Positions 2,981 to 60,007 of a stretch of DNA of 64,000 nt are shown one piece after another (position 1 is the first letter of the stretch; every line of letters starts with the position of its first letter). A model generated the notes under the pieces. The model made no database searches. It had not been told where the DNA came from and was given only the letters and a program-made list of their open reading frames with translations. The stretch is from Candidatus Margulisiibacteriota bacterium. GTDB lineage: Bacteria; Margulisbacteria; WOR-1; O2-12-FULL-45-9. A program made the translations under genes and the position numbers. The stretch lies in the NCBI GenBank assembly GCA_041658745.1, contig JBAZZP010000003.1, forward strand, positions 83,423 through 147,422, read 5' to 3'.

Positions 2981-4219
2981 CTATTCAGGAGTAACGGTCA
3001 TTATCAGTTTGGCTTGGTCCGGATACTTGGCAATAAAAATCAATTCTTCTTTGGTGAGTGGCTTTTGGGTATGGACATTGGCATAGCGCACCAGTTCTAG
3101 AACTCGGGCTGCTTCTTTGTCATCTTTAAATTCTACTTCTAATTTTCCATAGACATTGGCAAAGCCTTTTATTCCGCTGTATTCACCTACAGTAATCATA
3201 CGGCCAGATTCAACTAGTTCGGGTTCCCCTCGGCCCAATTCTTCGTAATCATATAATTCGTAATTGCGGCGGTTTTTAAGGGCTCCGTCAGCATGAATCC
3301 CTGATTCGTGGGCAAAAGCATTCGAACCTACCCCTACCTGATTAACCGGCAAAGGAATGCCAAAAGCGTATGAAGCATATTTGGCAAACTGCCATATTTT
3401 ATTTAACTTGATATTTTCGGGGAAAAGATTTAAATCTTTAAAACCACTGGAATATTTCAAGGCTAAAAGAACAGAAAGCAAGTCGGCATTACCGGCTCTT
3501 TCTCCCATCCCATTAATGGTCGTATTAATATAAGCGTCTTGTCCGCCGTCAATAATTCCTTTGGCTCCCATCACCGAACAAGCCACTGCCATTCCCAGAT
3601 CATTATGGCAATGCGTCTCAAGTGCAATTTTAGCTTTTTGAGCTATCGTCTTTAGTTTTTCATAAATCGTGAAAGGATCATCGGCCCCCAAAGTATCGCA
3701 ATAGCGAACTCGTTTTGCACCAACTTCTTTGGCAGCTTGGGCAAATTCAACTAGAAAATTAATATCCGTCCTTGAAGCATCTTCAGCGTTAACCCCTATC
3801 GTTTCAGCTCCCATTTTATACCCGGCCTTAACGGCACGCTGCATATTGGTAATAATTTCCTGGCGCGAAAATTTGCCGCTAAACTTGGCTTCGAGCATAA
3901 TATCCGAGGTTGAAATCGACATATTTAAATGCTTTATTGTAGGCACTAATTTATAAGCCAATTCAACGTCTTTGGTAATCGCTCGGATCCAGCCTTCGAG
4001 TTTAATTGGGCTCAGAGCGCCTATCTCGGCGAGTTGTAAATTAGCATTCAGATAATTAACTTCGTGTTGGGTGAAAGGGAAACCAAATTCAGACTGGTAA
4101 ACCCCAATATCGTTGAGATACATATTAACAATGGTTTTTTCTAATTTGGCAAGGCCAATGCGTGAAGTTTGCACCCCATCGCGGTTTGTAACATCCAGAA
4201 TATGAATTTTTGGCATCAT
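2981..4219 (-). CDS. 2-isopropylmalate/homocitrate/citramalate synthase family enzyme (short form, no LeuA regulatory domain)
   Basis: 412 aa. Motifs ILDVTNRDGVQ, HCHNDLGMAVA and AFAHESGIH match the DRE-TIM aldolase HMGL-like family. Substrate specificity cannot be told from sequence by eye. Confidence 0.8.
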   Translation of the reverse strand: MMPKIHILDVTNRDGVQTSRIGLAKLEKTIVNMYLNDIGVYQSEFGFPFTQHEVNYLNANLQLAEIGALSPIKLEGWIRAITKDVELAYKLVPTIKHLNMSISTSDIMLEAKFSGKFSRQEIITNMQRAVKAGYKMGAETIGVNAEDASRTDINFLVEFAQAAKEVGAKRVRYCDTLGADDPFTIYEKLKTIAQKAKIALETHCHNDLGMAVACSVMGAKGIIDGGQDAYINTTINGMGERAGNADLLSVLLALKYSSGFKDLNLFPENIKLNKIWQFAKYASYAFGIPLPVNQVGVGSNAFAHESGIHADGALKNRRNYELYDYEELGRGEPELVESGRMITVGEYSGIKGFANVYGKLEVEFKDDKEAARVLELVRYANVHTQKPLTKEELIFIAKYPDQAKLIMTVTPE

Positions 4220-5141: not shown

Positions 5142-5207
5142 TTTCGACACCATTCCTCGTAATTTACCCGCAAATAGCTTGGCAATAACATTGCTGGGTT
5201 GCTAAGC

Positions 5208-6209
5208 ATGCATTCATATCGCGAAACGCCCGCTCTATTAGATGAGATTATTGCACAGGCAATTTCCCAAAATGCATCTGATATCCATTTAGAGCCGCAC
5301 GAGAATCATCTTAAAGTGCGTTATCGAGTGGACGGGCTTCTGCAAGAAGGAGCCTCTGTTCCCAAGATAAAACAAGCATCGCTTACTTCCCGCCTTAAAG
5401 TGATGGTTAACCTCGATATCGCCGAAAGCCGACAACCGCAAGACGGAAGAACCAATCTGCAAATTAACAAAACAGCCTTTGATGTTCGGGTATCCACCAT
5501 TCCAACGATACATGGCGAAAAAGTAGTTATGCGACTGCTCAACCGCCAGCATGCCGCCCTGAAAATTGACGAGTTAGGGATGGAAAAAGAGGATTTAATA
5601 AAATATGAGAGGATGTTAAAGAAAAGAAGCGGAATAATTTTGGTAACTGGCCCAACGGGATCAGGCAAAACGACCACCCTCTACGCCACACTGTCCTATC
5701 TAAATTCGAAAGAGATAAACATCACGACCATTGAAGATCCGGTAGAATACCAATTGACAGGAATCAACCAAATTCAAATTAATCCAAAGGCAGGATTAAC
5801 TTTTGCTCGCGGGTTGCGCTCTATTTTGCGCCAAGATCCTGACGTTATCATGGTTGGTGAAATTCGCGATTTGGAAACGGCCAAGATCGCCCTACAAGCA
5901 GCGCTAACTGGGCATTTAGTCTTTTCAACCCTGCATACCAATGATGCGACATCAACCATTTGTCGTCTAATCGACATAGGGATCGAAAAATATTTAATCG
6001 AGTCAACCATTGTTGGAGTAATTGCGCAAAGACTAGTGCGCAAGAGAACTAGTGAGGGATATAAGGGACGCATTGGAATCTACGAAGTAATGGAAGGCAT
6101 CCAATCAAACACTGACATGTCTTCTCTTGCACAGAACGGAGAATTAAAAGTAGCACAGGGAATAACCACTAAAGAAGAATTAGCTCGCGTGCTTTATCTC
6201 GAACATTAA
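5208..6209 (+). CDS. compact GspE/PilB-family type II/IV secretion ATPase (core only)
   Basis: Motifs SDIHLEP..LKVRYRVDGLL, Walker A GPTGSGKTT, Asp box and His box TGHLVFSTLHTND. It lacks the N-terminal domains and the C-terminal tetracysteine motif. Confidence 0.8.
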   Translation: MHSYRETPALLDEIIAQAISQNASDIHLEPHENHLKVRYRVDGLLQEGASVPKIKQASLTSRLKVMVNLDIAESRQPQDGRTNLQINKTAFDVRVSTIPTIHGEKVVMRLLNRQHAALKIDELGMEKEDLIKYERMLKKRSGIILVTGPTGSGKTTTLYATLSYLNSKEINITTIEDPVEYQLTGINQIQINPKAGLTFARGLRSILRQDPDVIMVGEIRDLETAKIALQAALTGHLVFSTLHTNDATSTICRLIDIGIEKYLIESTIVGVIAQRLVRKRTSEGYKGRIGIYEVMEGIQSNTDMSSLAQNGELKVAQGITTKEELARVLYLEH

Positions 6210-6553: not shown

Positions 6554-6576
6554 GATTTCTGATATACTAGCACCAA

Positions 6577-7281
6577 ATGCTTTCTAAAGTCATCCGCACT
6601 ATCCTATTTTATTTTGTTTTAGTGGTAACTTTCTTTATTGGTACAACCATTACTTTTTTCTTCTTACCTTTCCACAGCAACAAGCACCGCCCCTTTCAAA
6701 TCGCCGCTCGCCTTTGGGCTAGGCTGCTGGTTAAAACCTCCAGGATCCCGCTCCAAATTGTTGGGCTAGAAAATATCGATAAAAATCAAACCTACTTGAT
6801 CGCGGCCAACCATCAAGGAGCAGCCGATATTCTGATTGTTTTAGCTGGATTGCCGATTAATTTCCTTTTCGCTATCAAAAAAGAATTATTTGAAATACCC
6901 GTCTTTGGCTGGTACCTTAAAAGAGCCGGTTATATTCCTGTTGACCGTGCTTTAATTCTAAGTGCCTATAAATTGGTAGAAACTTTTGCGGGACATTTGT
7001 CAGCCGGTGAATCTATTTTAGTTTTTCCGGAAGGGACCAGGACTAAGACTGGAGAACTAGGAGAATTTAAGCGCGGCAGTCTTCTCTCTGCTCCCAAAGC
7101 CAACGTGCCGGTTTTGCCGGTAGCCATTTCCGGCAGTTTTCATCTCCTGCCCAAAGGCTCCAAAATCATTGTCCCCCACCCGGTTAAAATGTCGATTGGC
7201 AAACCAATCACTTTTAGCCCAAGCGATGATTACGAAGAAAAAGTAAAAGAAGTCCACGATACAATTGCCAAGCTGCTTTAA
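6577..7281 (+). CDS. plsC: 1-acyl-sn-glycerol-3-phosphate acyltransferase
   Basis: NHQGAADILIV (NHxxxxD) and FPEGTRT motifs, with an N-terminal TM segment. Confidence 0.85.
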   Translation: MLSKVIRTILFYFVLVVTFFIGTTITFFFLPFHSNKHRPFQIAARLWARLLVKTSRIPLQIVGLENIDKNQTYLIAANHQGAADILIVLAGLPINFLFAIKKELFEIPVFGWYLKRAGYIPVDRALILSAYKLVETFAGHLSAGESILVFPEGTRTKTGELGEFKRGSLLSAPKANVPVLPVAISGSFHLLPKGSKIIVPHPVKMSIGKPITFSPSDDYEEKVKEVHDTIAKLL

Positions 7282-7303
7282 GATTTGTTATACTTAAATT
7301 AAT

Positions 7304-7807
7304 ATGCAACTAAACGGCAAAGCTCGGCGCTTTAAACAAAACGATGACATCAATACCGATTATGTAATTTCCGGTCGCTACAAATTTAAAATCCAGGATC
7401 CCCATGAATTAGCTAAACACGTGATGGAAGATTTGGATCCTAATTTCTACAATCGCATCCAACAAGGCGATTTTATCGTGGTTGGTCGCAACTTTGGCTG
7501 TGGTTCTTCGAGAGAACAAGCCCCACAATCGATTAAATATGCTGGCATTGCAGCCGTAATAGCCAAATCGTTTGCTCGTATTTTCTATCGCAATTGCTAT
7601 AATCTAGGATTATTAGCGATCGAAGCCAATACTGACGGGATTGATGATGCTGATGAATTAGAACTGGATCTTGATGCTGGAGTGCTGCGCAACAAAACCA
7701 AAAAGCAGGAAATTAAAGTTGCTCCTCTTCCCAAAACTATGCAAACTTTGCTAGCGGACGGGGGATTAATTGAACATTTCAAAAAACATGGTGGGTTTGA
7801 GGTTTAA
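7304..7807 (+). CDS. leuD: 3-isopropylmalate (or homoaconitate) dehydratase small subunit
   Basis: 167 aa. Motifs DINTDYVISGRY and GRNFGCGSSREQAP are typical of the short LeuD/HacB type. No large subunit is adjacent. Confidence 0.8.
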   Translation: MQLNGKARRFKQNDDINTDYVISGRYKFKIQDPHELAKHVMEDLDPNFYNRIQQGDFIVVGRNFGCGSSREQAPQSIKYAGIAAVIAKSFARIFYRNCYNLGLLAIEANTDGIDDADELELDLDAGVLRNKTKKQEIKVAPLPKTMQTLLADGGLIEHFKKHGGFEV

Positions 7808-7837
7808 AATCAACTTTCTTTGTAAATTTTCTGCAAA

Positions 7838-9203
7838 TTACAAATCAACAACTTCTCTTGCCATTGGAACCGTAATTGATTTTGTTGGCAACGTCCTAGC
7901 AAAACGATTCATGGCATCAAGTCTTCCATGACATATAACGTACTTTTGAGCATCTGTGTTTCTTAAAAAATGATCAAGGGGCCCGGAATAGGGATGATCA
8001 AATCCAGGAGGCATTTTAAAAGCCGCTCCTGCCTGTTCGGCGGTCATTCCTAATAGTTTAGCAATTTCAGGATCCAAACAAGTTTTGGGGGGGGAGGAGA
8101 AGCACTCCGCCATCAGCAGCAATCTCTCTAACAAATCTGGTTAACTGAAAAGTGTTTTGGGAAACCCCTGTAAAATTTCGTGTCCTCGTTAAGAATATGG
8201 CTCCTCTATAGTCTCTAGGGTTAAAATTTTTACCGGCGGGTTGCATGGAACTAAAATATTCTCTAAGTTCGGAGCTTTTTCTCCCAAATTTTGCTTTATA
8301 TTCTGGCGTAAAATAGCTGAAATATCTTAGCATTACACGCATCAATTGGTCTGTAAAAAGCTCATGACAGGTATCATTGTCAGTTCTGCCAACACGCTCA
8401 TGATCAAAACAAATAACCGGTTTGGTTGGAAAATCGCTATTTTTTGATCGCATCAAACCAATACAGTGCAAAACAAACTCAAAAGCAAGCCCCCCATAAT
8501 CAATATCAACTAGCACATTCCTCCCACCTGTCAGAGCCTGTTGTAATGATTTAGTTATCAGCCTTAATTCATTAAAATAATCTGGCTCGGGAACCCAAAG
8601 AAGGCTTGCCTCGGAGATAATAGCACGAGCACTGCGCTGTTCATCTGGCAAGTTAAAGGGAGGAAAGACTTTTCTCGCTCGATCTGACCAGTCACCAGTA
8701 AAAACGATCTTCCCGCCGGGATCATCAATCGCTATAGCCGCTGATCCCAGCATATGTCCCGCCGGGAATAAAGTAACAACTGCTGCTTCATGACGCCTTC
8801 CAACACAAGGCAGTTGCAGAATATATTCTTTTCCATAATCAAGCTCAATAATTCTATTTGATTGTAAAAGGGCTCGATCGGCAGCATTTTTACTAAAAAA
8901 TAGAGCTATTAAACGACGTGTTGCCGGAGTACATACTACCTGAGCCTCCCTGTTGGCTCGCATAGCCGAAGCCAACCCCCCCGCATGATCTGGATGGGCG
9001 TGTGAAACAAAAATCAAACGACAGTTTGAGAGAGAAGGAAATTCTTGTCTTTCTAAAGGGGTTCCGGGGTCAAGAAGATACCTATTCCCTCCACTTTCCA
9101 AAACATGCGTATTCCTTGCTGCCCCACTATGCAAACTTCCCCTGTAAGAAACAAAGGACATTGGTCTCTGTTTAACAATTGGTTTTATTCTTGGTGGTAC
9201 CAT
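7838..9203 (-). pseudogene. MBL-fold beta-CASP-like hydrolase split by a frameshift in a C8 (coding-strand) homopolymer
   Basis: ORFs 8067..9203 (VSHAHPDHAGG, FPAGHMLGS, FTGDWS) and 7838..8134 (..YVICHGRLDAM) overlap at the G8 run 8087-8094. Removing one base joins ..LLLPP to KTCLDPEIAKLL.. into one reading frame of ~455 aa. Confidence 0.6.
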
Positions 9204-9214
9204 ATCAGTAAAGT

Positions 9215-9241
9215 ATCATGAATAAATAGCAATAATTTCAC
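9215..9241 (-). promoter_or_regulatory. ECF-sigma-like promoter box GTGAAAT-N16-TGAT, 11 nt before the beta-CASP MBL ATG
   Basis: The coding strand reads AGTGAAAT-tattgctatttattca-TGAT-actttactgat-ATG. There is no SD. Confidence 0.5.
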
Positions 9242-9315
9242 TTTTTCAATTGCAGATTAATTGAATACAGGCTAAAATAGTCTCGGATAGAAGGGGCATT
9301 CTTTTAGGAGAAATT

Positions 9316-9762
9316 ATGTCAGACATAATGGTTGTAGCTAATTTATTAATTTCTTTTCTGCTGGGGGGAGCAATTGGCTGGCTGAGAGAAATAGAAGGCA
9401 AAACTGCTGGGCTCAGAACTCACATTTTGGTCGCGGTTGGTTCCACGCTATTTACCATTCTATCCATGGAAATGATGAATATTTCCGGCAGCTCAGATCC
9501 CGGCAGATTAACCGCGGGAATAGTTACCGGAATTGGTTTTATTGGCGCTGGCTGTATTATTCAAGCTGGGGGCGGAGTAAAAGGAATAACCACGGCTGCA
9601 TCAATCTGGGTTGTGTCTGCGATCGGCGTTGCAGCCGGAATGGGTTATTATGTCGCCGCTGTTGCCACCACCGTTATTTCACTTTTCACCATTCAAGTCC
9701 TCGGCCATGCCGAACATCGGGTAATGAAAAGCAAAGAAAGGGAAGAAGCAAAAAAAGGATAA
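9316..9762 (+). CDS. MgtC/SapB family membrane protein
   Basis: 148 aa. Motif LLGGAIGWLREIEGKTAGLRTHILVAVGS. SD TAGGAG lies upstream. Confidence 0.8.
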   Translation: MSDIMVVANLLISFLLGGAIGWLREIEGKTAGLRTHILVAVGSTLFTILSMEMMNISGSSDPGRLTAGIVTGIGFIGAGCIIQAGGGVKGITTAASIWVVSAIGVAAGMGYYVAAVATTVISLFTIQVLGHAEHRVMKSKEREEAKKG

Positions 9763-9765: not shown

Positions 9766-10443
9766 ATGTTTTATTATGATCCAACTTTTCTATTAATCAT
9801 CCCAGCCCTCCTCTTAGCCTTGTTTGCCCAATATAGAGTTAATTCTACTTATGCCAATTATTCCAAAGTACCCGCTTCCATTGGCATAACTGGCGAAGCG
9901 CTGGCTGAAAGAATATTGGCTAATCAAAATTTACTGATAAAAGTAGAATCCGTAGCCGGCGAGCTCTCTGATCATTATGATCCAACAGCTAAGGTTTTGC
10001 GCTTATCAAAAGGAGTCTATTCTGGCAATTCGGTAGCAGCGATGGGAATTGTTGCTCACGAAATCGGCCACGCCATGCAGGATGCAAAAGCTTATATGCC
10101 CCTAAAACTGCGTAATAATTTTGTGCCAGCGGCCAATTTTGGCACCAATTTTGCCTTTCCGCTCTTTTTTGTCGGGATCATTGCCGGCTTCCCCTTTCTG
10201 ATGGATTTGGCCATTCTGCTTTTTACTTTTGCCGTTGTTTTTTCCGTTATCACCTTGCCGGTTGAATTTAATGCTAGTAAAAGAGCTATGGCATTATTGT
10301 CCGACGGACATTATTTAACCAGCCAAGAACTCCCGATGGCCAAAAGCGTCCTTTCAGCTGCGGCTTTAACCTACGTTGCTGCCACGGCTATGGCAGTGTT
10401 AAACCTCATTCGTCTCCTTATTTTGCGCCGCTCTAGAGATTAG
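9766..10443 (+). CDS. YugP-like putative neutral zinc metallopeptidase (membrane)
   Basis: 225 aa. HEIGHAMQ (HExxH) between TM segments. The N-terminus MFYYDPTFLLIIPALLLALFAQ is typical of the Zn_peptidase_2 family. Confidence 0.75.
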   Translation: MFYYDPTFLLIIPALLLALFAQYRVNSTYANYSKVPASIGITGEALAERILANQNLLIKVESVAGELSDHYDPTAKVLRLSKGVYSGNSVAAMGIVAHEIGHAMQDAKAYMPLKLRNNFVPAANFGTNFAFPLFFVGIIAGFPFLMDLAILLFTFAVVFSVITLPVEFNASKRAMALLSDGHYLTSQELPMAKSVLSAAALTYVAATAMAVLNLIRLLILRRSRD

Positions 10444-10468: not shown

Positions 10469-10495
10469 GCGAAATTTACTCTTCTATTTTTCGAT
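10469..10495 (+). promoter_or_regulatory. ECF-sigma-like promoter box (variant GCGAAAT-N16-CGAT) upstream of the NTase-fold gene
   Basis: Reads GCGAAAT-ttactcttctattttt-CGAT, then 20 nt containing a GGGAG SD before the ATG at 10516. Confidence 0.4.
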
Positions 10496-10515
10496 ATATG
10501 CTTGGGAGAAAGTTT

Positions 10516-11760
10516 ATGTCTAAAATTCGTTTAGCAAAATTTGATCAAACTTATTTACAAATTTGGCGCGGCCAAAACCGAGAAAAAGCAAGCGCAATTC
10601 GCGAAAAAGCTTTGACTAGCGCTAAAACTGGCACCTCGCTCCTACCAATAATTGCTGAACAGCATGATTTTATTGTGGGCGGGATAAATCAAGCATTAAA
10701 GGGAATAACTGAGCCATCAATTGATATTTTAGACGAGAAAGTAATGGTACTTGTTTCCGGCAGCATAGCTAGACTGAGCTGTGTCCCAGGGTCGGATATT
10801 GATCTTGATGTAACCTATCCAGATTCTGAGAGATCCCGTTTTCTCCCGCTAGAAAAGGCCCTTTTTCAGAATATTCGGTGGCTCTTTGAATTCCCCCAAG
10901 AAAGGATTGGCACCAATGTGCATTCACACATCAGCCATACGATTTTTAAAAGATTTCCGCCTAAAATGCCTATAATTGCGGGTCTCCGGAAATTTGGCTG
11001 GCGATCTGGGATTGCCCATATTATTCGGCGCAGTTTATTTCATTGCCGAGCTCTAGAAAAACGGTTACGGGGAAAAAGCGAATCATCGGCCTTTTTAGAG
11101 CGGGCTTATTTTCAGCTGTTTCAACTGGAGCGTAGACTGGCTTTTAGAGAATTTGGGACGATTTGCTCTGGCCTATTAGAACGCTACTCGGAGAAGCAGG
11201 CACTTTCCCTTTACAATTTTGACACCCCATATAATATTGAAAATATCTTTGGGCCATCAGAAAGATTTTTGGCTTACATAGAACAACGTGAGTCGGCCGT
11301 AAAAGCAATTTCACAAGGTCGATTACGCGGCATTGCCATTAACTTGCAAAGACAAGGCCATGCACATAGAAACATTGCATCATCATTACCGGCCTTAAAT
11401 GATTTATATGATTTTCATCGGCAAGTTAAACATGACATATTAATAAATTTCTATTATTTGCTCACCTTTGAAAAAATGGTTGGCATAGACCTATTAGGCG
11501 CCGACAGAGAAAAAGCTTTTGAAGCTTACCAGATGTTGTTAAGGATAAAGGCTGTAATGAATATTTTAAGCCAACCAAAGCCAACGCTTGCCCCTTGCGA
11601 TGAGAGAATGTTTCCCATTACCGACCCATTTCTGCAAAGTACTGCGGTTTTCTTCGGTTGTCATTCCAAGCTAGGGCTTTTTAATTTGATAACACAAGAA
11701 AGTGATACTCTTTTACAAATAATTGAGGCTGCCTATAATCGCTATTTGGCCATGTTATAA
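10516..11760 (+). CDS. nucleotidyltransferase-fold protein (Pol-beta superfamily, GlnD/GlnE-like NTase motif) with helical C-terminal domain
   Basis: VLVSGSIARLSCVPGSDIDLDV fits the G-S..x(n)..D-x-D NTase motif. I prefer the ATG at 10516, which has a GGGAG SD, over the track start at 10498. Confidence 0.45.
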   Translation: MSKIRLAKFDQTYLQIWRGQNREKASAIREKALTSAKTGTSLLPIIAEQHDFIVGGINQALKGITEPSIDILDEKVMVLVSGSIARLSCVPGSDIDLDVTYPDSERSRFLPLEKALFQNIRWLFEFPQERIGTNVHSHISHTIFKRFPPKMPIIAGLRKFGWRSGIAHIIRRSLFHCRALEKRLRGKSESSAFLERAYFQLFQLERRLAFREFGTICSGLLERYSEKQALSLYNFDTPYNIENIFGPSERFLAYIEQRESAVKAISQGRLRGIAINLQRQGHAHRNIASSLPALNDLYDFHRQVKHDILINFYYLLTFEKMVGIDLLGADREKAFEAYQMLLRIKAVMNILSQPKPTLAPCDERMFPITDPFLQSTAVFFGCHSKLGLFNLITQESDTLLQIIEAAYNRYLAML

Positions 11761-18629: not shown

Positions 18630-20552
18630 TTAGCGGAAATCGGTGTCAAATTCTATCCCGTTTGCGTGATTCTCTTTGATATAAGTATAAATATCAATTA
18701 AGTTTTGTCGCAAAGCAGCGCGATCGGGAGTTTGACTATAAATAACTCTAAAAACACGGTTTAAAGATTCGCTCCTAAACGGTTCATTTTGTAAAGATTC
18801 TTCCATAGCTGAAGGATTAAGGGCAAATAAAGCAATGATTCTTCGGTAAGTGGCTGGAAATATTGTATAAGCCATCCCCGCGGATGCAATCCCCTCATCC
18901 GGTGCATCTTTTGGATGCCCTGCCCATGGATAATAATCCAGCAATACCGAGTCATCCAACAAATCCCACGTACCTAAACTTCGTCCTGCATAATAAAGAT
19001 TTAAATACTTTTCTTTCGTCGGGGTATAAGGGTGTTCACTGTATGGGGTATAACTGTAATCATAAAATCCGTGGCTTAGTTCGTGAGCAACAACCGTAGC
19101 CAAGACAAGCTCAAATTCCTCTGGCAAGGGAGAAAGTGGCACGCGACTGTCAATGCCTATTGCCGGACCCAATCCTACGCCACTCCCACCAAAAGGAGTT
19201 GGCATACAATCATCAATTTTAAAATAAATACCATTACGTTTGAATATCACTAATCTATCGGCCAAATTAGAAATAACCGTTGAATTAGCTAAGGGAATGG
19301 CACCTCCCAAAAAGATAAAGCTCTTTCCTTTTAAGTTAATGGTTTGTGAAGATTGCCCCTCAACGACATTAATATCCTGACATTCCTTCCCAACTGGAGG
19401 TTCCAAAGACACCCCAGCCAGGGATGATCTCCAGTTGTCACCTTGCGCCAATAAATCGATAAAACGCAGTGTTAGTTCTGTTGCCTTGGCCACAGCTTCC
19501 ATGTTTGGAACCATTATGTCTGCGGCAGTATGAGCCACAAGATTGCCAGGATAAGCACTACCGGCCGGTCCTGGTCCGCCATTTTCTGAAATCATTACTG
19601 ATGGAATACCCTTAAGATAAAATTGTCCCTGATCGCTGCTCATGGCAGCTAAAGGATCATTGATTAAATCGGTAACAACTCCAGCGCTATCGTTAACCTG
19701 ATGCAATATGTCCATGAGCCGCCCAGAAATTCCCTTTCCACCCAGAACCAGGCGATCGGTCAAGGGATTCCCTCCCAACGTATCCAGATTGATAACTCCC
19801 AAAATAGAAGGATCATTTTGCTCTAGCACAGCTGTATAAGCCTTGCTGCCAAGTTGGCCATATTCTTCACCATCAAAGGCAATCAGCTCAATGTCAAAGG
19901 GGAGCTGGTAATTCCGCAAATTCATTGCGATTTCAAGCAATGCGGCAACACCCGAAGCATTGTCATCCGCTCCGGGCGCAAATTCATTGTTTATCCCCTC
20001 TCCAATAGAATCAAAGTGAGCACAAATTATTAATCTTAGGCCTAAAGCTTCCCTCCCTGGAATTCTGGCAATCACATTGTGTAATTCACCAATATTTATA
20101 CCAGGGAGATCATACTTCAGAGACAGCCTGGCAGAATCGTCAATTGGAATCGTCACAGATTCTACTGTAGCCCTACCACCTAAGGCTCGATACAAAGTAT
20201 CATAAATAAATTGTCTTGCAGCTTCATTCCCTTCCGTAAAAATACGTCTTGGCATCAATGACAAAATACGAATGCTTTCTGCAATCCTCTGCCGATCAAC
20301 CTGGCAATGGACAACACTCCCGGCAACCCTTCCTCCCCCACAACCTCGCCGTAGCAATCTCCTTCTGGAAACGCCAACATTGTTGTCTCTTGGTTTTGGG
20401 TTTGCGTGTGATTGATTCATAGGTTGATTTTGTGTGACTAATTCTTGATTTGAATTATTAGTTTCCATGGTAGAAAAAGGGCTAATTGTCTTTAGGCAAC
20501 TGAAAAAGTTGGCACTATTGCTGTTTAAACAATATTGTATTTTATCTGTCAT
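18630..20552 (-). CDS. M28-family aminopeptidase domain fused to a C-terminal HExxH metalloprotease-like domain
   Basis: The M28 part shows ICAHFDS, GADDNASGVAALLEIA and FDGEEYGQLGS. The C-terminal third contains VAHELSHGF. The N-terminus is Q/N-rich and has no clear signal peptide. Confidence 0.65.
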   Translation of the reverse strand: MTDKIQYCLNSNSANFFSCLKTISPFSTMETNNSNQELVTQNQPMNQSHANPKPRDNNVGVSRRRLLRRGCGGGRVAGSVVHCQVDRQRIAESIRILSLMPRRIFTEGNEAARQFIYDTLYRALGGRATVESVTIPIDDSARLSLKYDLPGINIGELHNVIARIPGREALGLRLIICAHFDSIGEGINNEFAPGADDNASGVAALLEIAMNLRNYQLPFDIELIAFDGEEYGQLGSKAYTAVLEQNDPSILGVINLDTLGGNPLTDRLVLGGKGISGRLMDILHQVNDSAGVVTDLINDPLAAMSSDQGQFYLKGIPSVMISENGGPGPAGSAYPGNLVAHTAADIMVPNMEAVAKATELTLRFIDLLAQGDNWRSSLAGVSLEPPVGKECQDINVVEGQSSQTINLKGKSFIFLGGAIPLANSTVISNLADRLVIFKRNGIYFKIDDCMPTPFGGSGVGLGPAIGIDSRVPLSPLPEEFELVLATVVAHELSHGFYDYSYTPYSEHPYTPTKEKYLNLYYAGRSLGTWDLLDDSVLLDYYPWAGHPKDAPDEGIASAGMAYTIFPATYRRIIALFALNPSAMEESLQNEPFRSESLNRVFRVIYSQTPDRAALRQNLIDIYTYIKENHANGIEFDTDFR

Positions 20553-20679: not shown

Positions 20680-20706
20680 ATCGCTACTTCCTTCAGTATA
20701 TTTCAC
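20680..20706 (-). promoter_or_regulatory. ECF-sigma-like promoter box GTGAAAT-N16-CGAT, 127 nt upstream of the M28 peptidase ATG
   Basis: The coding strand reads TGTGAAAT-atactgaaggaagtag-CGAT. The leader ends with an AAGGAAA SD. Confidence 0.45.
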
Positions 20707-22529: not shown

Positions 22530-22787
22530 TTATTCCACCGTATATGGGACAAGCCCCATCTGCCTTGATTTTTTTACTATCGCTGACACCATCCGCTGAT
22601 GAAGAGCACAACATCCGCTCATCCGGCGAGGAGCAATTTTGCCGCGGTCAGTTACAAAGCGGCGTACAAAATTAACATCCTTATAATCTAATGTTTTTTT
22701 GTCGATACAAAACATGCACGGCTTCCTTTTCATCGGCTTCTTATACGTTTGCGGTTTACTTGGTTTTCTTCTTTCTCGATTACTCAT
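22530..22787 (-). CDS. rpsR: 30S ribosomal protein S18
   Basis: 85 aa. Motifs CMFC..IDYKDVNFVRRFVTDRGKIAPRRMSG.CA.HQR. Confidence 0.92.
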   Translation of the reverse strand: MSNRERRKPSKPQTYKKPMKRKPCMFCIDKKTLDYKDVNFVRRFVTDRGKIAPRRMSGCCALHQRMVSAIVKKSRQMGLVPYTVE

Positions 22788-22804
22788 CTATTTCTCCTTG
22801 ATAT

Positions 22805-23269
22805 TTAAAAAGGTATTTCGTCAATTTCTTTACTCTCGTCCCCTTCAATGGCCATTACGGGCCCTTTCTTCCCTTCCTCTCCCTCATGGGCCTTCACGGG
22901 CCCTTTGTCCCCCTCTTCTCTTTTTCCCAACATTTGGATATTATCCGCGATAACTTCGACCATGCTTCTTTTTTCGCCATCTCGTCCCACAAAATTACTG
23001 ACCTGCAGCCGGCCTTCTACCGCCACCGGTCGGCCTTTTTTAAGGTATTCGCCCACAATTTCGGCGGTTCTTCTCCATGCAACAATATTTATAAAATCCA
23101 CATCCTGGTTGGCAGATGAAGAATCATGCCCCGTAGCTTCTTGGGATTCTTCCTTGCGTTTAAACCGGTTTACCGCAACCGTAAAACGACAGACAGGAAT
23201 CCCCGAAGTGGTATAGCGAAGCTCCGGATCCCTCGTTAAATTCCCAATTATAAAAACTTTATTATACAT
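22805..23269 (-). CDS. ssb: single-stranded DNA-binding protein (paralogue 2, with internal 13-aa tandem duplication)
   Basis: OB fold MYNKVFIIGNLTRDPELRYT..CRFTVAVNR..FINIVAWR, with the acidic tip DEIPF. Confidence 0.85.
   Translation of the reverse strand: MYNKVFIIGNLTRDPELRYTTSGIPVCRFTVAVNRFKRKEESQEATGHDSSSANQDVDFINIVAWRRTAEIVGEYLKKGRPVAVEGRLQVSNFVGRDGEKRSMVEVIADNIQMLGKREEGDKGPVKAHEGEEGKKGPVMAIEGDESKEIDEIPF
22841..22918. repeat. 2 x 39-nt tandem duplication inside ssb paralogue 2
   Basis: It encodes EEGDKGPVKAHEG / EEGKKGPVMAIEG. An exact 14-mer, ccctcatgggcctt (22881-22894), recurs intergenically at 23298-23311. Confidence 0.7.
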
Positions 23270-23314
23270 GCCATATACCCTTAATCGCCTTTATGGGCCC
23301 TCATGGGCCTTTTA

Positions 23315-23737
23315 CTAAAAAGGCAAATCGTTATCTAAGTCAGCGTCATCCACCACATCTTCGGCGGCAGCAACACTGGCAAGCGTCGGTTTAGCAGCGT
23401 GTTGGTGATCAGCTCCCAGCAAAAAAACATCTTTCGCTACGACTTCAGTTACCCATTTCCGTTTCCCGCCTTGGTCATCAAAAGAGCGGACCTGAATTCG
23501 TCCTTCAACTAAGACCATTTGGCCGGATTTTAATTTTGCACTGCCTTCGGCAACATTGCGCCAGGCAATAATATCAATTAAATCAGAACCAGATTGGATC
23601 GGCGTTGGTTGTCCTAAAGAAGCCCGCCTCTCAACCAGCAATTTAAATTTGGTCATGGCCAAACCGTCCATCGTAGCACGCGCCTCGGCATCTGTAGCCA
23701 GTTTACCTGACAAAATAATACGGTTTAAACTAGCCAA
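23315..23737 (-). CDS. ssb: single-stranded DNA-binding protein (paralogue 1)
   Basis: OB fold NRIILSGKLATDAE..DIIAWRNVAE..VEGRIQVRSF, with the acidic tip DNDLPF. Confidence 0.85.
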   Translation of the reverse strand: MASLNRIILSGKLATDAEARATMDGLAMTKFKLLVERRASLGQPTPIQSGSDLIDIIAWRNVAEGSAKLKSGQMVLVEGRIQVRSFDDQGGKRKWVTEVVAKDVFLLGADHQHAAKPTLASVAAAEDVVDDADLDNDLPF

Positions 23738-25259: not shown

Positions 25260-25292
25260 ATTTTTAGTATAACACAGACCAGTGTCTTTGAA

Positions 25293-26597
25293 CTATGTCT
25301 GGCGAATCCCAGCACCCCAACGTGCAAGTGTCGCCGTCAGGCAGACATCTAGATTAGTATTACGGATCTCTCCCAAGCCTCTTCCTTGTAGACGGTTGGC
25401 AACACAACCCCCTTGGCATATTTCTATGACATCACAGGGTTGGCAAATGGATGACGGGTATTGCAAATGGTCTTCGATGACCCGGTTTTTAAAAATCTGC
25501 CCAGTTTTCGGGTCCCCCAAAATTAAGCCATCGGTTTTTTCTCCCACTAAGGCTAGACAAAAAACAAACTTTTCTTCTGGCAGGAGAAGGGTGTAAGACT
25601 GCGGAGAATCAAGCATAGGACAAGGTCGGCGCGAAGTAAGATAGGCATTATCCTCAAGTCCTAATTGATAGCGCCAGATCCCTTTGGAATAATAATTTGG
25701 TCCAATGGTCCCCATACTAAGCAGGATCTGCAACTTTTCCTTTGGCCAATTTTTCCGAGCTTCAATCACGGACAACAAAAAGCGATCCATGGCGTCTTCC
25801 GTGAGAGGGGAAACGCCCCCTTTAGCGTTTCCAAGCGGCCGCGTTAAACGCAAAACCACTGTTTCAACTCCCAACTCAACAGCCTCCCGCGCAACTTCTT
25901 GAATTCCTTCTAAATAATCCAAATAAACCTGACTAAATATTCCCACCGAAAATGGTCGCGGATTATGGCTGCGCGAAAACTCAACCATTTCCCCAATATT
26001 TGAAGAGACAGCAGCATGGCTGTTTCTCCCATAAGCTATTTGGTGAAGGGCAGCCGGCAGATGACTAATGCGTAAATGGCGAACCGAAGATTGAGCCAAA
26101 GCCTGCAAATTTTGCTGGGTCAGTCTTCTTTCCCCATTGGTAATGGCATAGGGATCCCCTGCCAAAGTTTTAAGACGCAGCACCTGTTCCAACAGGCGAT
26201 CATTTACATTTAATTCTTTTGGATAGGCGGTAGTTAGAAAGCCTTCAGCTTGCGCGGCACGGATTCTTGCTGAGATTAAATCTTCATCAATAACTGGGCT
26301 CTCTGGTCCTTCGGGTGTCCAAAAACAAAACTCACAGCGGCGATTGCAGGGAGTATTAAGTAGTAGATCGGCCATTGGCTTTACTGGACGCTGCAACAAC
26401 CGCTCTCCATAGCGCTTAATATTCGGCATATTTGTCGCCGCTCGTGCCCGTTGACTGGCCGAGAGGCCAAGGTAAGGAGCAATCAAAGAATACTCCGCCG
26501 GCCCCAAGGTTTTTCCAGCCACAACAATGTTTCCCGATTTACGTGGTAGTAAATGAACAACCATATTATTTTTTCTCCCAACCATTAAACTCGTCAT
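25293..26597 (-). CDS. radical SAM enzyme with C-terminal SPASM-like Cys cluster and ~70-aa N-terminal extension
   Basis: CNRRCEFC (Cx3Cx2C) lies at about residue 84. The C-terminus has CPMLD.., FCLAL.. and CQPCDVIEICQGGCVANR (CxxCx5Cx3C). Confidence 0.75.
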   Translation of the reverse strand: MTSLMVGRKNNMVVHLLPRKSGNIVVAGKTLGPAEYSLIAPYLGLSASQRARAATNMPNIKRYGERLLQRPVKPMADLLLNTPCNRRCEFCFWTPEGPESPVIDEDLISARIRAAQAEGFLTTAYPKELNVNDRLLEQVLRLKTLAGDPYAITNGERRLTQQNLQALAQSSVRHLRISHLPAALHQIAYGRNSHAAVSSNIGEMVEFSRSHNPRPFSVGIFSQVYLDYLEGIQEVAREAVELGVETVVLRLTRPLGNAKGGVSPLTEDAMDRFLLSVIEARKNWPKEKLQILLSMGTIGPNYYSKGIWRYQLGLEDNAYLTSRRPCPMLDSPQSYTLLLPEEKFVFCLALVGEKTDGLILGDPKTGQIFKNRVIEDHLQYPSSICQPCDVIEICQGGCVANRLQGRGLGEIRNTNLDVCLTATLARWGAGIRQT

Positions 26598-26604
26598 CTA
26601 GTCT

Positions 26605-26631
26605 ATCTGAGTAAATAAAAAATAATTTCAC
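26605..26631 (-). promoter_or_regulatory. ECF-sigma-like promoter box GTGAAAT-N16-AGAT, 7 nt before the radical-SAM ATG
   Basis: The coding strand reads AGTGAAAT-tattttttatttactc-AGAT-agactag-ATG. There is no SD. Confidence 0.55.
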
Positions 26632-26661
26632 TAAATAAATTAGGCAAAAGAAAAAATATTC

Positions 26662-26687
26662 TGAAATTATCCTAACTTCCTCTCGAG
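26662..26687 (+). promoter_or_regulatory. near-match to the same promoter box (TGAAAT-N16-CGAG), 8 nt before the MBL ATG
   Basis: Reads cTGAAAT-tatcctaacttcctct-CGAG-attaagtt-ATG. There is no SD. Confidence 0.35.
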
Positions 26688-26695
26688 ATTAAGTT

Positions 26696-27646
26696 ATGAT
26701 TTCGCGCATATCAAAACATGCAGCAAAACCTACACATCAAAAAAATGCTGCTCCAATGCGACCAGGCTTCGCTAAGCTCGAGAAGGTCGGCACCTTTCAA
26801 GAGTGGTTCGAGGTTTACAGGCTCACGCCGGATACATATGCAATTTATGAACCGTATCAATTCCAGGAAGCGATCTGCTATCTTGCTCTGGGCACATCGA
26901 AGGCACTGCTCATAGACACCGGTAACGGCATTGGCAACATTCGAGATGTTGCCTCCACATTAACAGGTTTGCCCATCTCAGTTGTCCTAACTCACGAGCA
27001 CGCGGATCACTACGGCGGCGCGCATTTATTTGAGCACGTTGCCGTTTACAATTTTCAGGCAGCGCTTAAGGAGCTGCGACAAGGGGTTCCGAACGCATCC
27101 GCATGCTGCTCCATCACTGGGAATAACTTATGGGGACCGCTTCCTAATGGGGTTGATCCCGCGACTTGGTCTGTGCTGCCGGTCAATCCCGATTTGCTGC
27201 TCGAAGAGGGCTCAATAGTTGATTTGGGTGGCCGTCAGCTTGAAGTGATCCACACGCCAGGGCACTCGGCTTCCGAAATCTGCCTGCTGGATAACAGCCG
27301 CCGTCTATTGTTCTCGGGAGATCATTTTTACCCCGGTCCGTTGTATTTACAATCGGCAACGGCCGACATCCTCAGCATCTTCGTGGAATCGAACAATAAA
27401 TTAGTACAACGTGTTAATGAGTACGACCATGTGCTTGGCGGTCATAACGAGCCGTGGATCGACGCCGCCGTAATTCCCCGTGTTAGCCAAGCGATGGCGA
27501 TTGTTCTCTGTGGTGGTGGCGCTTTTTCTGAAGATCAGGGAATCAGACGTTATTTCTTCGACGGGTTCGATATCCTGCTTCGCGCTGCGAGCATCAAGAG
27601 TTACATGGTAAAACATCTGCCTGTTAGTGAAAAAAAGATGGATTGA
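26696..27646 (+). CDS. MBL-fold metallo-hydrolase
   Basis: Motifs THEHADHYGG (HxHxDH), HTPGHS and FSGDH. Spot counts suggest it is GC-richer than most of the window. Confidence 0.8.
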   Translation: MISRISKHAAKPTHQKNAAPMRPGFAKLEKVGTFQEWFEVYRLTPDTYAIYEPYQFQEAICYLALGTSKALLIDTGNGIGNIRDVASTLTGLPISVVLTHEHADHYGGAHLFEHVAVYNFQAALKELRQGVPNASACCSITGNNLWGPLPNGVDPATWSVLPVNPDLLLEEGSIVDLGGRQLEVIHTPGHSASEICLLDNSRRLLFSGDHFYPGPLYLQSATADILSIFVESNNKLVQRVNEYDHVLGGHNEPWIDAAVIPRVSQAMAIVLCGGGAFSEDQGIRRYFFDGFDILLRAASIKSYMVKHLPVSEKKMD

Positions 27647-27692
27647 TCTAGCTTAATCCTGGGAAAGAAATAAATCTGGAATTTTAAATCGC

Positions 27693-27719
27693 GTGAAATT
27701 TATTAGAAATATAGAAGAA
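27693..27719 (+). promoter_or_regulatory. near-match promoter box GTGAAAT-N16-AGAA upstream of the FGE-like gene
   Basis: The 13-mer gtgaaatttatta is identical to 28806-28818. It is followed by a 44-nt leader with a TAGGAG SD. Confidence 0.3.
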
Positions 27720-27763
27720 AACAAAGTGAAAGATACAACGCAGAATACTTAGGAGATTAGAAC

Positions 27764-28804
27764 ATGGTTAAAACCTCTGTTGCAGGAAATGTTGGCGGGG
27801 ACAGTTTGGTTAGAGCCCTGCTATGTTCTCAAGCTTCTATAAGAGGGGACCAAAAAAGAAGCCGAAGTTGTGGCATAAGGATATTTTCACAATACTTAGG
27901 GAGAAACTCCGCAAGACAAGAGGCATGGGTGAAAAACACCCCCCTTTCACCGGAAGTGGTTTTTGCTCGTGCTAGTTTAGATAGTGCTTGGCTAAAACAA
28001 GCTGGGCAATGGCTGGAAACCTCAACTGACCCAAAACAACGGGCGGCCATGTTAAAAAGACTTGGGGCTGAAAAGCTTGAACCAGAAAATCTTTACCCCC
28101 TTCCCGAAATTGAGTTACCCATGGTGCCCCACATTCCAACAGGGCCATTCACGATGGGCAGTCAGCAATTTGATGACGCTAAACCTTTGAGAGAAATAAT
28201 CCTTGATCCTTTTAGTATAAGTATTTTCCCAGTAACCAGAGCCCAATATTTGATAGGAATGCAGCAAGCAGGTTTAATCACACCGGAATATTGGAAGCAA
28301 ACAGACGGAGAATTGATTTGCCCTTCCCATCCGGTTACCGGTGTAACTTGGGAACAGGCCAACGCGTTTGCAGAGTGGCTTGGCCGAAGATTACCTACCG
28401 AAGCTGAATGGGAATTCTCCGCTAGAGGTTATGATGAAAAACTCTATCCATGGGGAAACATATTTGATCCTTCACGGGCGGCCTTTCACCAACGGGGAAC
28501 CAGCCCCGTTGATGCCTACCCAACCGGTGTATCTTGGAATGGGATTTTTGGACTAGCTGGTAATATTTGTGAGTGGTGCGCTGATTGGTATGCTTCATAT
28601 GACCCGTCCGCATTACACAACCCTCGCGGCCCAGAAGAAGGAAGCATGCGAGTTTTACGTGGTGGGTCACATTTCTATGATGAGCCCGAATTATTGCGTA
28701 GTGATCGTCGCAACAAGCATTATCCAAGCATCGTCGGCAATAGTTATGGTTTTCGCGTAGCGGAAGGGGGCATTGTTCCCCCAAATGGCTTAGTTAAAAA
28801 ATAG
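27764..28804 (+). CDS. FGE-sulfatase domain protein (SUMF1/EgtB/PvdO family) with ~115-aa N-terminal extension
   Basis: Motifs GPFTMGS, HPVTGVTWEQANAFAEWLGRRLPTEAEWEFSARG, GNICEWCADWY and RVLRGGSHF. Confidence 0.8.
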   Translation: MVKTSVAGNVGGDSLVRALLCSQASIRGDQKRSRSCGIRIFSQYLGRNSARQEAWVKNTPLSPEVVFARASLDSAWLKQAGQWLETSTDPKQRAAMLKRLGAEKLEPENLYPLPEIELPMVPHIPTGPFTMGSQQFDDAKPLREIILDPFSISIFPVTRAQYLIGMQQAGLITPEYWKQTDGELICPSHPVTGVTWEQANAFAEWLGRRLPTEAEWEFSARGYDEKLYPWGNIFDPSRAAFHQRGTSPVDAYPTGVSWNGIFGLAGNICEWCADWYASYDPSALHNPRGPEEGSMRVLRGGSHFYDEPELLRSDRRNKHYPSIVGNSYGFRVAEGGIVPPNGLVKK

Positions 28805-28805
28805 A

Positions 28806-28832
28806 GTGAAATTTATTAAGAGAGGGGCTGAT
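28806..28832 (+). promoter_or_regulatory. ECF-sigma-like promoter box GTGAAAT-N16-TGAT, 8 nt before the M20 peptidase ATG
   Basis: Reads AGTGAAAT-ttattaagagaggggc-TGAT-ataaaggc-ATG. Confidence 0.55.
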
Positions 28833-28840
28833 ATAAAGGC

Positions 28841-30463
28841 ATGAACAAAGTAACGACTCAAGGCACTGCCGCTCAAATCAGGCAGCTATCAGCATTAACT
28901 GCCCGGCTGGTAAAAACGGGGAGCATTAGTCCCTCTCAAGGAGAAAATAGGGTCGCTAAACTAATTGTTAGAACCATGCAACGCGGAGGATTTTCTATCG
29001 CTGATCCGCTAACAAGCGATGTCCTTCTATCCGCCAGCACCGGCTTAATTCCACTGCCCGACGGAAGGGCAAATGCCTTTGCCTTCCTGCCCGCCTTAGA
29101 AAGAACCGATAAAACATTATTACTATTTGGCCACATGGATACTGTTGGGATAGATGATTTTGGCCAGCTAAAAGGTGTGGCAAACGATCCCGTAAAATTA
29201 AGAAAGGCTCTCATAGAAGAAGGAAGCGAAGCTGAGGCCATTAAGGACTTACTAACTGGGAACTGGATGTGCGGACGTGGGTCATTGGATATGAAGAGCG
29301 GTCTCGCCATTGAAATGACAACCTTAATTAATCTTCGCAGTAATCCTTCCAATGGGAATATTCTTTTTATGGGAATGCCCGACGAAGAAAACGATTCGGC
29401 CGGTATGCTGGGCGCTGTCCCATTTTTAAAACATTTTGCCGAATTACACCAGCTCAACCTAATGGGAGCCATTAATGCCGACTATACTACCGAAAGATTT
29501 CCAGGAGATAGCAACCGCTATTTGTATTTGGGAACAGTTGGTAAACTTTTACCAACTTTTTTAGTCATTGGCAGTACAACCCACGTGGGAGAGATTTTTA
29601 ACGGGATCAACCCTTCATTAATCCTTGCCCAGCTAGCTGCTCAAATGGAAACTAATCCGGCCTTTTGCGATACAATGGAAGGAGAAACGACCCTTCCCCC
29701 CACTGCATTAAAGTTTTCCGACCTAAAAGCAGGTTATAATGTGCAAACTCCGCTCTCTGCCTGGGCATATTTTAATTTATTCACCCATTCAATGACTCCG
29801 GAAAACGCCATGCAGCATATTTTGTCTATCGCTCGGGAAGCAGCACATAGGTCCCAACAAATATTGCGGGCAAGAACCAGGGATTTTAATGTGCGGACTG
29901 GCAGCAACCATCCCGATACCCAAATTAACATTTCTGTTTTGCCTTTTGACGAATTAGCTACTGGGCTTACAATTGATTCTTCGGCTGCTGCAATAGCTAC
30001 CGATCCACGGGATAAAAGCCGACTAATTGTTGAAGATTTATGGAGAAGGTCGGGAAGATCGCTTGGTAGACATGAGGCGGTGATTATCCCATTTTTGTCT
30101 CCACCTTACTATCCACATGGACATGTTTCGAAGGAAGAATCGGCCGCTTCCTCTTTTATTTCAGCAGCAACAGCTAGTGCAAAACGGGCCGGATTAGCCG
30201 TCAGGAAATTTTATCCGTATATTTCGGATGCCAGCTTTCTGCGGGCGCCCATGACCGGAGCAGACATGACCAGTCTATTGCCTTTATGGGAAAAGGGCTA
30301 TCGTCTTCCCATCGAAGACATTCGTGCATTAAATTTACCCGTAATTAATTTAGGACCTTGGGGAAAGGGGGCGCATCAGAGAATCGAAAGAATTGAAACC
30401 AGTTATTCTTTTGGAAGGCTTCCACAAATTATGGAAGATGTTATCCGTAATACCTTTAGATAA
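28841..30463 (+). CDS. M20-family metallopeptidase/amidohydrolase, RocB-like (long form)
   Basis: 540 aa. Motifs LLLFGHMDTVGIDDFG, GRGSLDMKSG and MPDEENDSAGM. The size and N-terminal block resemble the arginine-utilisation protein RocB. Confidence 0.7.
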   Translation: MNKVTTQGTAAQIRQLSALTARLVKTGSISPSQGENRVAKLIVRTMQRGGFSIADPLTSDVLLSASTGLIPLPDGRANAFAFLPALERTDKTLLLFGHMDTVGIDDFGQLKGVANDPVKLRKALIEEGSEAEAIKDLLTGNWMCGRGSLDMKSGLAIEMTTLINLRSNPSNGNILFMGMPDEENDSAGMLGAVPFLKHFAELHQLNLMGAINADYTTERFPGDSNRYLYLGTVGKLLPTFLVIGSTTHVGEIFNGINPSLILAQLAAQMETNPAFCDTMEGETTLPPTALKFSDLKAGYNVQTPLSAWAYFNLFTHSMTPENAMQHILSIAREAAHRSQQILRARTRDFNVRTGSNHPDTQINISVLPFDELATGLTIDSSAAAIATDPRDKSRLIVEDLWRRSGRSLGRHEAVIIPFLSPPYYPHGHVSKEESAASSFISAATASAKRAGLAVRKFYPYISDASFLRAPMTGADMTSLLPLWEKGYRLPIEDIRALNLPVINLGPWGKGAHQRIERIETSYSFGRLPQIMEDVIRNTFR

Positions 30464-30484
30464 AAAAACAAGGAGGAAAAGAAA

Positions 30485-31171
30485 ATGGCAGTATTAAGTA
30501 TTGGTTCAATCCACGTGCAAAAATTATACAGAGGAATGAGGACTCCTGAAAGCACAATGAAAATTGGGGGGGAACGCTTGGCCCACATCCTAGGGGTTAG
30601 GCCGGGAACAGCTTCTTTCGGGAGAATTGCTTTCGGCAATCAAGAATTAGATCTCAGGGAAATAGTAAACTTGGCTGCTCCTGCCGACATAGCCGTAAAT
30701 GGCAGGGAAGAGATTGACGCGGCAAAAGCACAAGCAATTTTAGCTGCTAGAGTAACTGGCAACTGGGAAACGGCCAATGGATTGCTTGGAACTAATTTGC
30801 ACGCAAGCCGCACGATAAGAAGATCGCTAGCTTATACTCTTTTGGAAGAAGGAGTAGCAGCCTTTAACCGTTTAAGAGAATCCTTAAGTGAAGCAACTGT
30901 TAATCTGCGCGGCGTCGAAATGCCCGAGATTGACCTTTCTGGCGCTACCCTTTCTGGTGCAGAATTAGCGTTTGCCAATTTGTCTAGGACACGTTTCTCG
31001 AGTAAGACCAGATTAGACGGTGCAGATTTAACCGGCGCAAACCTAGCTGGGGCAGATCTATCAAATGCAGATTTGTCAACGGCGCTTGTTGCAGAGGCGA
31101 CCTATTCTAGCGCTACTCGATTTCCAGCAAATTTCGATCCTGCAAATCTTGGAATGATAAAAATAGGATAA
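30485..31171 (+). CDS. pentapeptide-repeat protein (repeats only in the C-terminal ~80 aa)
   Basis: LSGATLSGAELAFANLSRTRFSSKTRLDGADLTGANLAGADLSNADLS. AAGGAGG SD lies upstream. Confidence 0.8.
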   Translation: MAVLSIGSIHVQKLYRGMRTPESTMKIGGERLAHILGVRPGTASFGRIAFGNQELDLREIVNLAAPADIAVNGREEIDAAKAQAILAARVTGNWETANGLLGTNLHASRTIRRSLAYTLLEEGVAAFNRLRESLSEATVNLRGVEMPEIDLSGATLSGAELAFANLSRTRFSSKTRLDGADLTGANLAGADLSNADLSTALVAEATYSSATRFPANFDPANLGMIKIG

Positions 31172-31187
31172 TAAAGGAGGAAATAAT

Positions 31188-45818: not shown

Positions 45819-45874
45819 ATAAAATCAGTATAGCACGGGGTGAAAAGCACTGTAAAGAAGGGAAAATGGGACAA

Positions 45875-51282: not shown

Positions 51283-51313
51283 GTTACAGCGATTATAACA
51301 TAAGCCAAATCGC

Positions 51314-51342
51314 TTGTCACAAGCCGTTTGCTATACTATAAT
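51314..51342 (+). promoter_or_regulatory. sigma-70-like promoter giving a leaderless transcript of the PAS sensor gene
   Basis: TTGTCA (51314-19), then 17 nt, then TATAAT (51337-42), then 7 nt to the ATG at 51350. There is no SD. Confidence 0.5.
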
Positions 51343-51349
51343 TCGAAGC

Positions 51350-59963: not shown

Positions 59964-60007
59964 TTGTTCTCCTTCCTATAATGAAACACGAAATCGGACA
60001 TAATATT

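Follow-up and report, generated by a model that had tools for sequence, protein, structure and literature searches.

Genes and box sites in the window

The window, by which we mean the whole 64-kb stretch of DNA analyzed here, is an unremarkable piece of bacterial chromosome with a GC content of 43% that is rich in housekeeping genes (uvrC, rplI, ssb, rpsF, ychF, argS, mutL, topA, panC, thrS, infC, rplT, dxr, frr, pyrH, mnmG, lpxD, gcvT/H, miaA, and hisD). Its intergenic DNA amounts to about 4.2 kb and is AT-rich (39% GC). Neither a tRNA nor an Rfam family was found in the window, and no gene for a sigma or anti-sigma factor was found within the 64 kb. Positions 22805-23737 are taken up by a tandem pair of SSB-family genes (154 and 140 aa), with rpsF on one side and rplI on the other, and a short rpsR, below the 100-aa cutoff for open reading frames (ORFs), probably sits in the 252-nt gap at 22553-22804. 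A 7TM (HisKA_7TM) and PAS protein encoded at 51314-52387, divergent from pyrH, stops short of any kinase or output domain. Genes for a type II/IV secretion ATPase and for a series of small proteins bearing N-terminal methylation (pilin-like) motifs occur at 5199-6209 and 40612-42166; the sequence box that is the subject of this study is absent from these genes.

This box consists of two parts separated by a fixed spacer. An initial annotation of the sequence had noticed it upstream of several dispersed genes outside a neighboring radical-SAM island, and every site quoted there was found, at its coordinates and in its orientation. Distances to start codons are counted below from the GAT of the box, and scores are those of a position weight matrix (PWM).

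Five of the sites lie outside the island. On the reverse strand, the box at 9215-9241 reads (A)GTGAAAT-N16-TGATAC (AGTGAAAT-N16-TGAT; PWM score 29.1) and stands 11 nt from the ATG of gene 8067-9203 (reverse strand), which encodes an orphan MBL-fold protein. The nearest solved relatives of this protein are beta-CASP nucleases, its next homologue shares 31% identity, and a scan of genome contigs found no relative. On the forward strand, GCGAAAT-N16-CGATAT at 10469-10495 (PWM score 32.0) is 2 nt from ATG 10498 of gene 10498-11760 (forward strand), the product of which is a 420-aa protein. Of the “NTase-fold” label given to this protein, the sequence shows only a nucleotidyltransferase-like motif, GS...DIDLD; Pfam, NCBIfam, and PDB returned no match. 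A second in-frame ATG of the same gene, at 10516, lies 18 nt past ATG 10498 and is preceded by a Shine-Dalgarno-like GGGAGA; judging from these letters, ATG 10516 rather than 10498 is likely to be the real start.

The remaining three non-island sites are all on the reverse strand, as are their genes. At 20680-20706, TGTGAAAT-N16-CGATAT lies 127 nt upstream of ORF 18630-20552, which encodes an M28-family metallopeptidase with a C-terminal extension containing HELSH. No known riboswitch (Rfam) was found in the 127-nt leader. At 61153-61179, TGTGAAAT-N16-CGATTA is 8 nt from the ATG of gene 60047-61144, coding for a family 2 glycosyltransferase (GT2). At 60008-60034, ACTGAAAT-N16-AGATAA stands 44 nt before the hypothetical gene 59295-59963, the first of a pair (58615-59963) encoding a 222-aa protein and a putative lipoprotein of 227 aa, with no family match for either. 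A 21-codon ORF (MSDFVFHYRKENKWPFNSLVH) at 59936-60001 of the reverse strand begins 6 nt past the GAT of this box and extends over the beginning of the 222-aa gene; it may encode a leaderless leader peptide or have no meaning at all. Scans of metagenomes found no relatives of the 420-aa and 222-aa proteins.

Four further copies fall in the island at 25293-32447, between ychF and argS. This island encodes a radical-SAM protein (CNRRCEFC) with a SPASM-like domain, an MBL hydrolase, an FGE-sulfatase/EgtB-like protein, an M20/DapE-like deacylase, a pentapeptide-repeat protein, and an arginase-family protein, and has the look of a small biosynthetic cluster that may modify peptides. On the reverse strand, AGTGAAAT-N16-AGATAG at 26605-26632 is 7 nt from the ATG of the radical-SAM/SPASM gene 25293-26597. 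Divergent from it, on the forward strand, CTGAAAT-N16-CGAG at 26661-26687 (PWM score 20.1) is 8 nt from the ATG of the MBL gene 26696-27646. Also on the forward strand are AGTGAAAT-N16-TGATAT at 28805-28832, 8 nt from the ATG of the M20-like gene 28841-30463, and a weaker, ninth site, GTGAAAT-N16-AGAA at 27693-27719, 44 nt before the FGE-sulfatase/EgtB-like gene 27764-28804. One 12-mer, AATAATTTCACT, occurs both at 9231-9242 and, in the island, at 26621-26632, where 0.06 such occurrences are expected.

The earlier functional labels of the M28 peptidase and the GT2 protein are supported, as is that of the beta-CASP MBL protein in the sense of its beta-CASP-like relatives. The description of the box-bearing genes as “accessory” is apt in that they are orphan or narrowly distributed; it does not extend to recent horizontal transfer, as their composition is native and the compositional test for such transfer was not significant. 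PADLOC returned no defense-system match for any box gene.

Frequency and anatomy of the box

The pattern TGAAAT-N17-GAT was matched 7 times across the window, against 1.30 expected, and none of 100 shuffles of the window reached 7. In 1.4 Mb of unrelated bacterial loci, it occurred at a rate of 1.3 per 64 kb. These control loci came from a YchF scan of genome contigs, which yielded mostly Firmicutes; the only Margulisbacteria it yielded, L001 and L056, do not belong to the controls. Within the ~4.2 kb of intergenic DNA, 6 matches were found, against 0.057 expected and a maximum of 2 over 3,000 shuffles, which is an enrichment of ~100-fold. The supposition that the motif is more frequent than chance, at first a rough estimate, thus agrees with all three comparisons (window shuffles, 1.4 Mb of control loci, and intergenic shuffles), each of which rejects chance.

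A PWM scan of the window gave a bimodal distribution, in which eight sites score from 20 to 32 and the next best scores 12.8. The divergent island copy at 26661-26687 reached its score of 20.1 even though it was outside the first training set of the PWM. All eight high-scoring sites lie between genes and are directed at the neighboring one, just as had been claimed, and in the intergenic regions with codirectional flanking genes the box is on the gene strand in every case (5 of 5). Two pattern matches were set aside as products of chance: one at 3434-3459, which lies inside a gene and has a PWM score of <8, and one in L056, which is intragenic, on the antisense strand, and without GTG.

Twelve sites, 7 from the window and 5 from relatives, were aligned to obtain a consensus. 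It comprises an A-rich stretch, the upstream block GTGAAATT, a nonconserved N15 spacer, and CGATAW. The upstream block is longer and better conserved than the downstream (-10) part; its AAA recurs without exception among the 12 sites, and the preceding base is G, not T. Exactly 16 nt separate GAAAT from CGAT at every site, most of the sites having been found with fixed-spacing patterns; a spacer range of 16 to 18 nt was allowed in the search of L081-L084 only. The two-part structure with N16 spacing put forward in the initial annotation is therefore retained, and its downstream part, written there as NGAT, is better described by the CGATAW of the 12-site alignment. Among the eight high-scoring window sites, the core of this part is CGAT in three, CGAG in one, and TGAT or AGAT in the rest; all six CGAT-type sites of relatives (two in L081, three in L082, and one in L087) read CGATA(A/T). 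Neither the spacer nor the flanking DNA is conserved between sites, which argues that the box is not a repeat element.

The housekeeping genes of the window are preceded by promoters of another kind, near-canonical TTGACA-N17-TATAAT. In the cases of ychF, thrS, pyrH, dxr, mutL, argS, and gcvT (the last with a corrected start), the -10 hexamer ends 6 to 9 nt before the start codon; examples of TATAAT near a start codon are found at 25260-25290, 45819-45860, 51283-51313, and 61190-61212. This spacing points to many leaderless mRNAs in the genome from which the window comes, and leaderless mRNAs seem, on such sequence grounds, to be common in the organism. The mechanically called start of gcvT (TTG 61126) overlaps the putative GT2 promoter, and ATG 61210 (MSKQTPLYSQH...) sits 6 nt past a TATAAT; TTG 61126 is probably wrong, and ATG 61210 is the likely, leaderless, start. 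At several box sites the start codon is likewise found 7 to 11 nt past GAT, so that leaderless or near-leaderless mRNAs would be expected there as well, and the spacing of 7, 8, or 11 nt between GAT and ATG fits the genome's own leaderless architecture. No separate sigma-70-like promoter (a match of at least 9 of 12 positions) was found for the box genes; the box before gene 59295-59963 itself reads as a weak one.

Conservation of the box in related genomes

Orthologues were compared for the GT2 and M28 genes, that is, for 2 of the 5 non-island genes or units. Conservation of the motif upstream of orthologues, a point on which the proposed regulon could be judged, was borne out: the box with its N16 spacing is kept in all four GT2 orthologue groups and in the single M28 orthologue. 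The four GT2 clusters are 35 to 44% identical at the protein level, derive from different metagenomes, and have aligned N termini. Their boxes read TGTGAAAT-N16-CGAT, 8 nt from the ATG, in L081; CCGAAAT-N16-CGATAT, 12 nt from the ATG, in L082-84; CTGAAAT-N16-CGAG in L085; and ATGAAAT-N16-CGAA, 10 nt from the ATG, in L086. The M28 orthologue in L087 is 61% identical, and its box, AAAAGTGAAAT-N16-CGATAAT at 9842-9868, lies 132 nt upstream of the gene, against 127 nt in the window; the two leaders do not align. The M28 orthologue, P0053, carries a twin-arginine-like signal and a lipobox (RRDFLRLG...LASCG), and the first 60 residues of the window protein (SRRRLLRRGCGGG) are divergent and do not align with it.

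Weight matrices can be transferred in both directions. A PWM built from the window sites alone gave scores of 27.8, 24.9, 24.7, 19.0, and 18.6 to the sites of relatives, against a maximum of 18.4 in 1.37 Mb of controls, and in the reverse test a PWM built from the relatives alone ranked the window sites first. L001 is a named Margulisiibacteriota MAG (51% GC) with a strong box (PWM score 24.7) upstream of a manA-like gene. Additional boxes in the relatives precede unrelated lineage-specific genes (for a 303-aa protein in L081 and a 326-aa protein in L082, both lacking a family match, and for a methyltransferase in L082). Boxes form divergent pairs in both L081 and L082. At positions 2602-2643 of L081, two divergent boxes have a common, perfectly palindromic -35 block, GTGAAATTTCAC, with the GT2 orthologue on one strand and the 303-aa gene on the other. 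The GT2-orthologue locus of L082, on a 340-kb contig, also shows an odd repeated arrangement at 6571-9649, where three Fic-domain genes are interleaved with two genes for TruA-type pseudouridine synthases. No sigma factor gene was found in the examined loci from relatives.

Since the box is kept upstream of orthologues and the PWMs transfer both ways, it is under selection, and on this comparison of sequences it is a candidate promoter class of the whole lineage that is not confined to the genome of the window. The density of the box is about 9 per 64 kb in the window and about 3 extra copies per 50 kb in the relatives. By extrapolation only, this density suggests a large regulon, of a size unusual for sigma-28 or ECF factors.

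A candidate alternative-sigma promoter class

The position of the box, its orientation, and its spacing to start codons all fit a promoter. We consider it likely that the two blocks are the -35 and -10 elements of a class of promoters recognized by an alternative sigma factor that belongs to this Margulisbacteria lineage, most likely a group 3, sigma-28-like factor and otherwise one of the ECF type. Weighing the candidates roughly within this model, a sigma-28-like factor is the foremost, at not quite an even chance; an ECF factor is a possible second, and some other kind of factor is a slightly fainter prospect. What the sequences show is enrichment, placement, orientation, fixed spacing, and conservation in front of orthologues; we infer from this that the box is a promoter, where transcription begins, that the genes are co-regulated, and which kind of sigma factor is involved. 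The regulon is drawn from the shared, conserved box only; the sequence comparisons support a shared promoter box that would define such a putative regulon.

RNA polymerase carrying the alternative sigma factor would start transcription about 7 to 9 nt past GAT. With +1 set 8 nt past GAT, GTGAAAT spans -35 to -29 and CGAT spans -12 to -9; GTGAAAT would then serve as the -35 element (about -35 to -29) and CGATAW as the -10 element (about -12 to -7). For several targets the predicted start coincides with the ATG or immediately precedes it; for others it lies 44 to 130 nt upstream. Whenever the sigma factor is active, all box-bearing units would be switched on together, i.e., the beta-CASP-like MBL protein, the NTase-like protein, the M28 peptidase, GT2, the hypothetical pair, and the adjacent radical-SAM island.

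Among the other explanations, the one that survives best, and which we nevertheless regard as unlikely, makes GTGAAATT the site of an activator overlapping the -35 region (class II), with the primary sigma factor using a weak -10-like GATAWT; the genes would then form the regulon of a DNA-binding regulator. The greater length and conservation of the upstream element over the -10 would suit such a protein, and one site, read as CTGAAA-N18-GATAAT, scores as a weak sigma-70 promoter. The perfect palindrome GTGAAATTTCAC between the divergent boxes of L081 is what a dimeric regulator would be expected to bind; it is, however, a simple consequence of two overlapping -35 elements in opposite orientations, and the window sites are not palindromic. 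Against an activator, too, all lineages keep CGATA at the constant N16 distance, the T that sigma-70 requires at -7 is not maintained, and the element at about -35 to -29 is exactly where sigma region 4 is positioned.

Somewhat less probable still is that the box is an ordinary variant of a housekeeping or group 2 sigma promoter (GTGAAA-N18-GATAAT) in front of weakly expressed genes, with no separate regulon. GTGAAA agrees with TTGACA at 4 of 6 positions and GATAAT with TATAAT at 5 of 6, an 18-nt spacer is allowed, and the density of the box is high for a specialized sigma factor. Yet the housekeeping genes of the same window have near-canonical TTGACA/TATAAT promoters, and the box is sharply set apart by the bimodal PWM scores and by its invariant G/AAAT and GA. 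Moreover, G at -12 and, at most sites, a base other than T at -7 suit sigma-70 poorly, and the noncanonical letters are kept across orthologues at only 35 to 61% protein identity. A chance or compositional pattern of AT-rich (39% GC) intergenic DNA, or a dispersed mobile repeat, in either case without a regulatory role, is very improbable: one match (3434-3459) is indeed due to chance, but the intergenic matches number 6 against the 0.057 of the shuffles, spacer and flanks are not conserved as they would be in a mobile repeat, and the box is kept upstream of orthologues in five other lineages.

A conserved alternative promoter motif, once validated, has several uses. It helps to annotate start codons and transcription units, as in the cases of the leaderless starts, the start of the 420-aa gene, and that of gcvT; it brings orphan genes together in a set whose co-regulation can be tested; it links the control of this set with that of the neighboring radical-SAM island; and it offers a concrete way to track down, in complete genomes, the sigma factor responsible. 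Margulisbacteria, which are uncultivated, form a sister group of the Cyanobacteria. A search of the literature found no paper describing Margulisbacteria promoters, and a search on the letters of the motif returned nothing relevant.

Promoters of the sigma-70 type that give rise to leaderless mRNAs are common, for example, in Actinobacteria and Deinococcus. The box resembles them in that the start codon follows 6 to 11 nt past the -10, with the transcript predicted to start at or next to the ATG, and differs in its recognition elements, which are not TTGACA and TATAAT.

ECF (group 4) promoters include those of Bacillus subtilis SigW (TGAAAC-N16-CGTA) and Pseudomonas aeruginosa PvdS (TAAAT-N16-CGT). 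With these the box shares two blocks at a rigid 16-nt spacing, a -35 of the xGAAAx type that runs into T-rich sequence, a -10 that begins with CG, and accessory targets. It departs from them in both hallmarks: in place of the AAC of the -35 (GGAAC/TGAAAC), all sites have GAAAT, with T for C, and the -10 is CGA(T/G/A) rather than CGT. Furthermore, no co-located, autoregulated sigma/anti-sigma pair was seen in the window or in the loci of relatives, and the regulon suggested by the box looks larger than a typical ECF regulon.

The closest likeness is to promoters of sigma-28 (FliA/SigD/WhiG, group 3; TAAA-N15-GCCGATAA). In the open complex at P. aeruginosa fliC, the sigma-28 elements are TCTAAAG at -36 to -30 and GCCGATAA at -15 to -8 (PMC12784957). 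The box has the same geometry, the first A of AAA preceding the C of CGA by 20 nt, and shares the -10 core CGATA(A/T), a long -10 region, and the location of the AAA core (about -33 to -31). It differs in its -35, which is GTGAAAT rather than the TCTAAAG/TAAAGTTT of sigma-28, in that the GC before CGATAA is not conserved at box sites, and in that T or A takes the place of the C of CGA at half of the window sites. Also unlike the flagellar regulons, no flagellar or chemotaxis genes are among the targets seen, and no FliA or FlgM gene was found in the window. Nonflagellar sigma-28 regulons are known, e.g., the late genes of Chlamydia and the WhiG regulon of Streptomyces. Homologues of FlgV are carried by Margulisbacteria, and FlgV has been reported to be co-conserved with sigma-28 (PMC11607428). 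A FliA-type factor is thus plausible for the phylum, a statement about Margulisbacteria at large and with no tie to the MAG of the window.

It is tempting, if rather unlikely, to assume that a promoter class of sigma-28 geometry has become detached from flagellar control and acts as a global switch for lineage-specific genes, with possibly 100 to 200 promoters per genome, the radical-SAM/SPASM island among their targets and much of the output leaderless. Most likely, the box represents a fairly ordinary kind of regulon and reveals no new regulatory principle; it would add a member, from a phylum about which little is known, to a familiar kind of system, the alternative-sigma promoter class.
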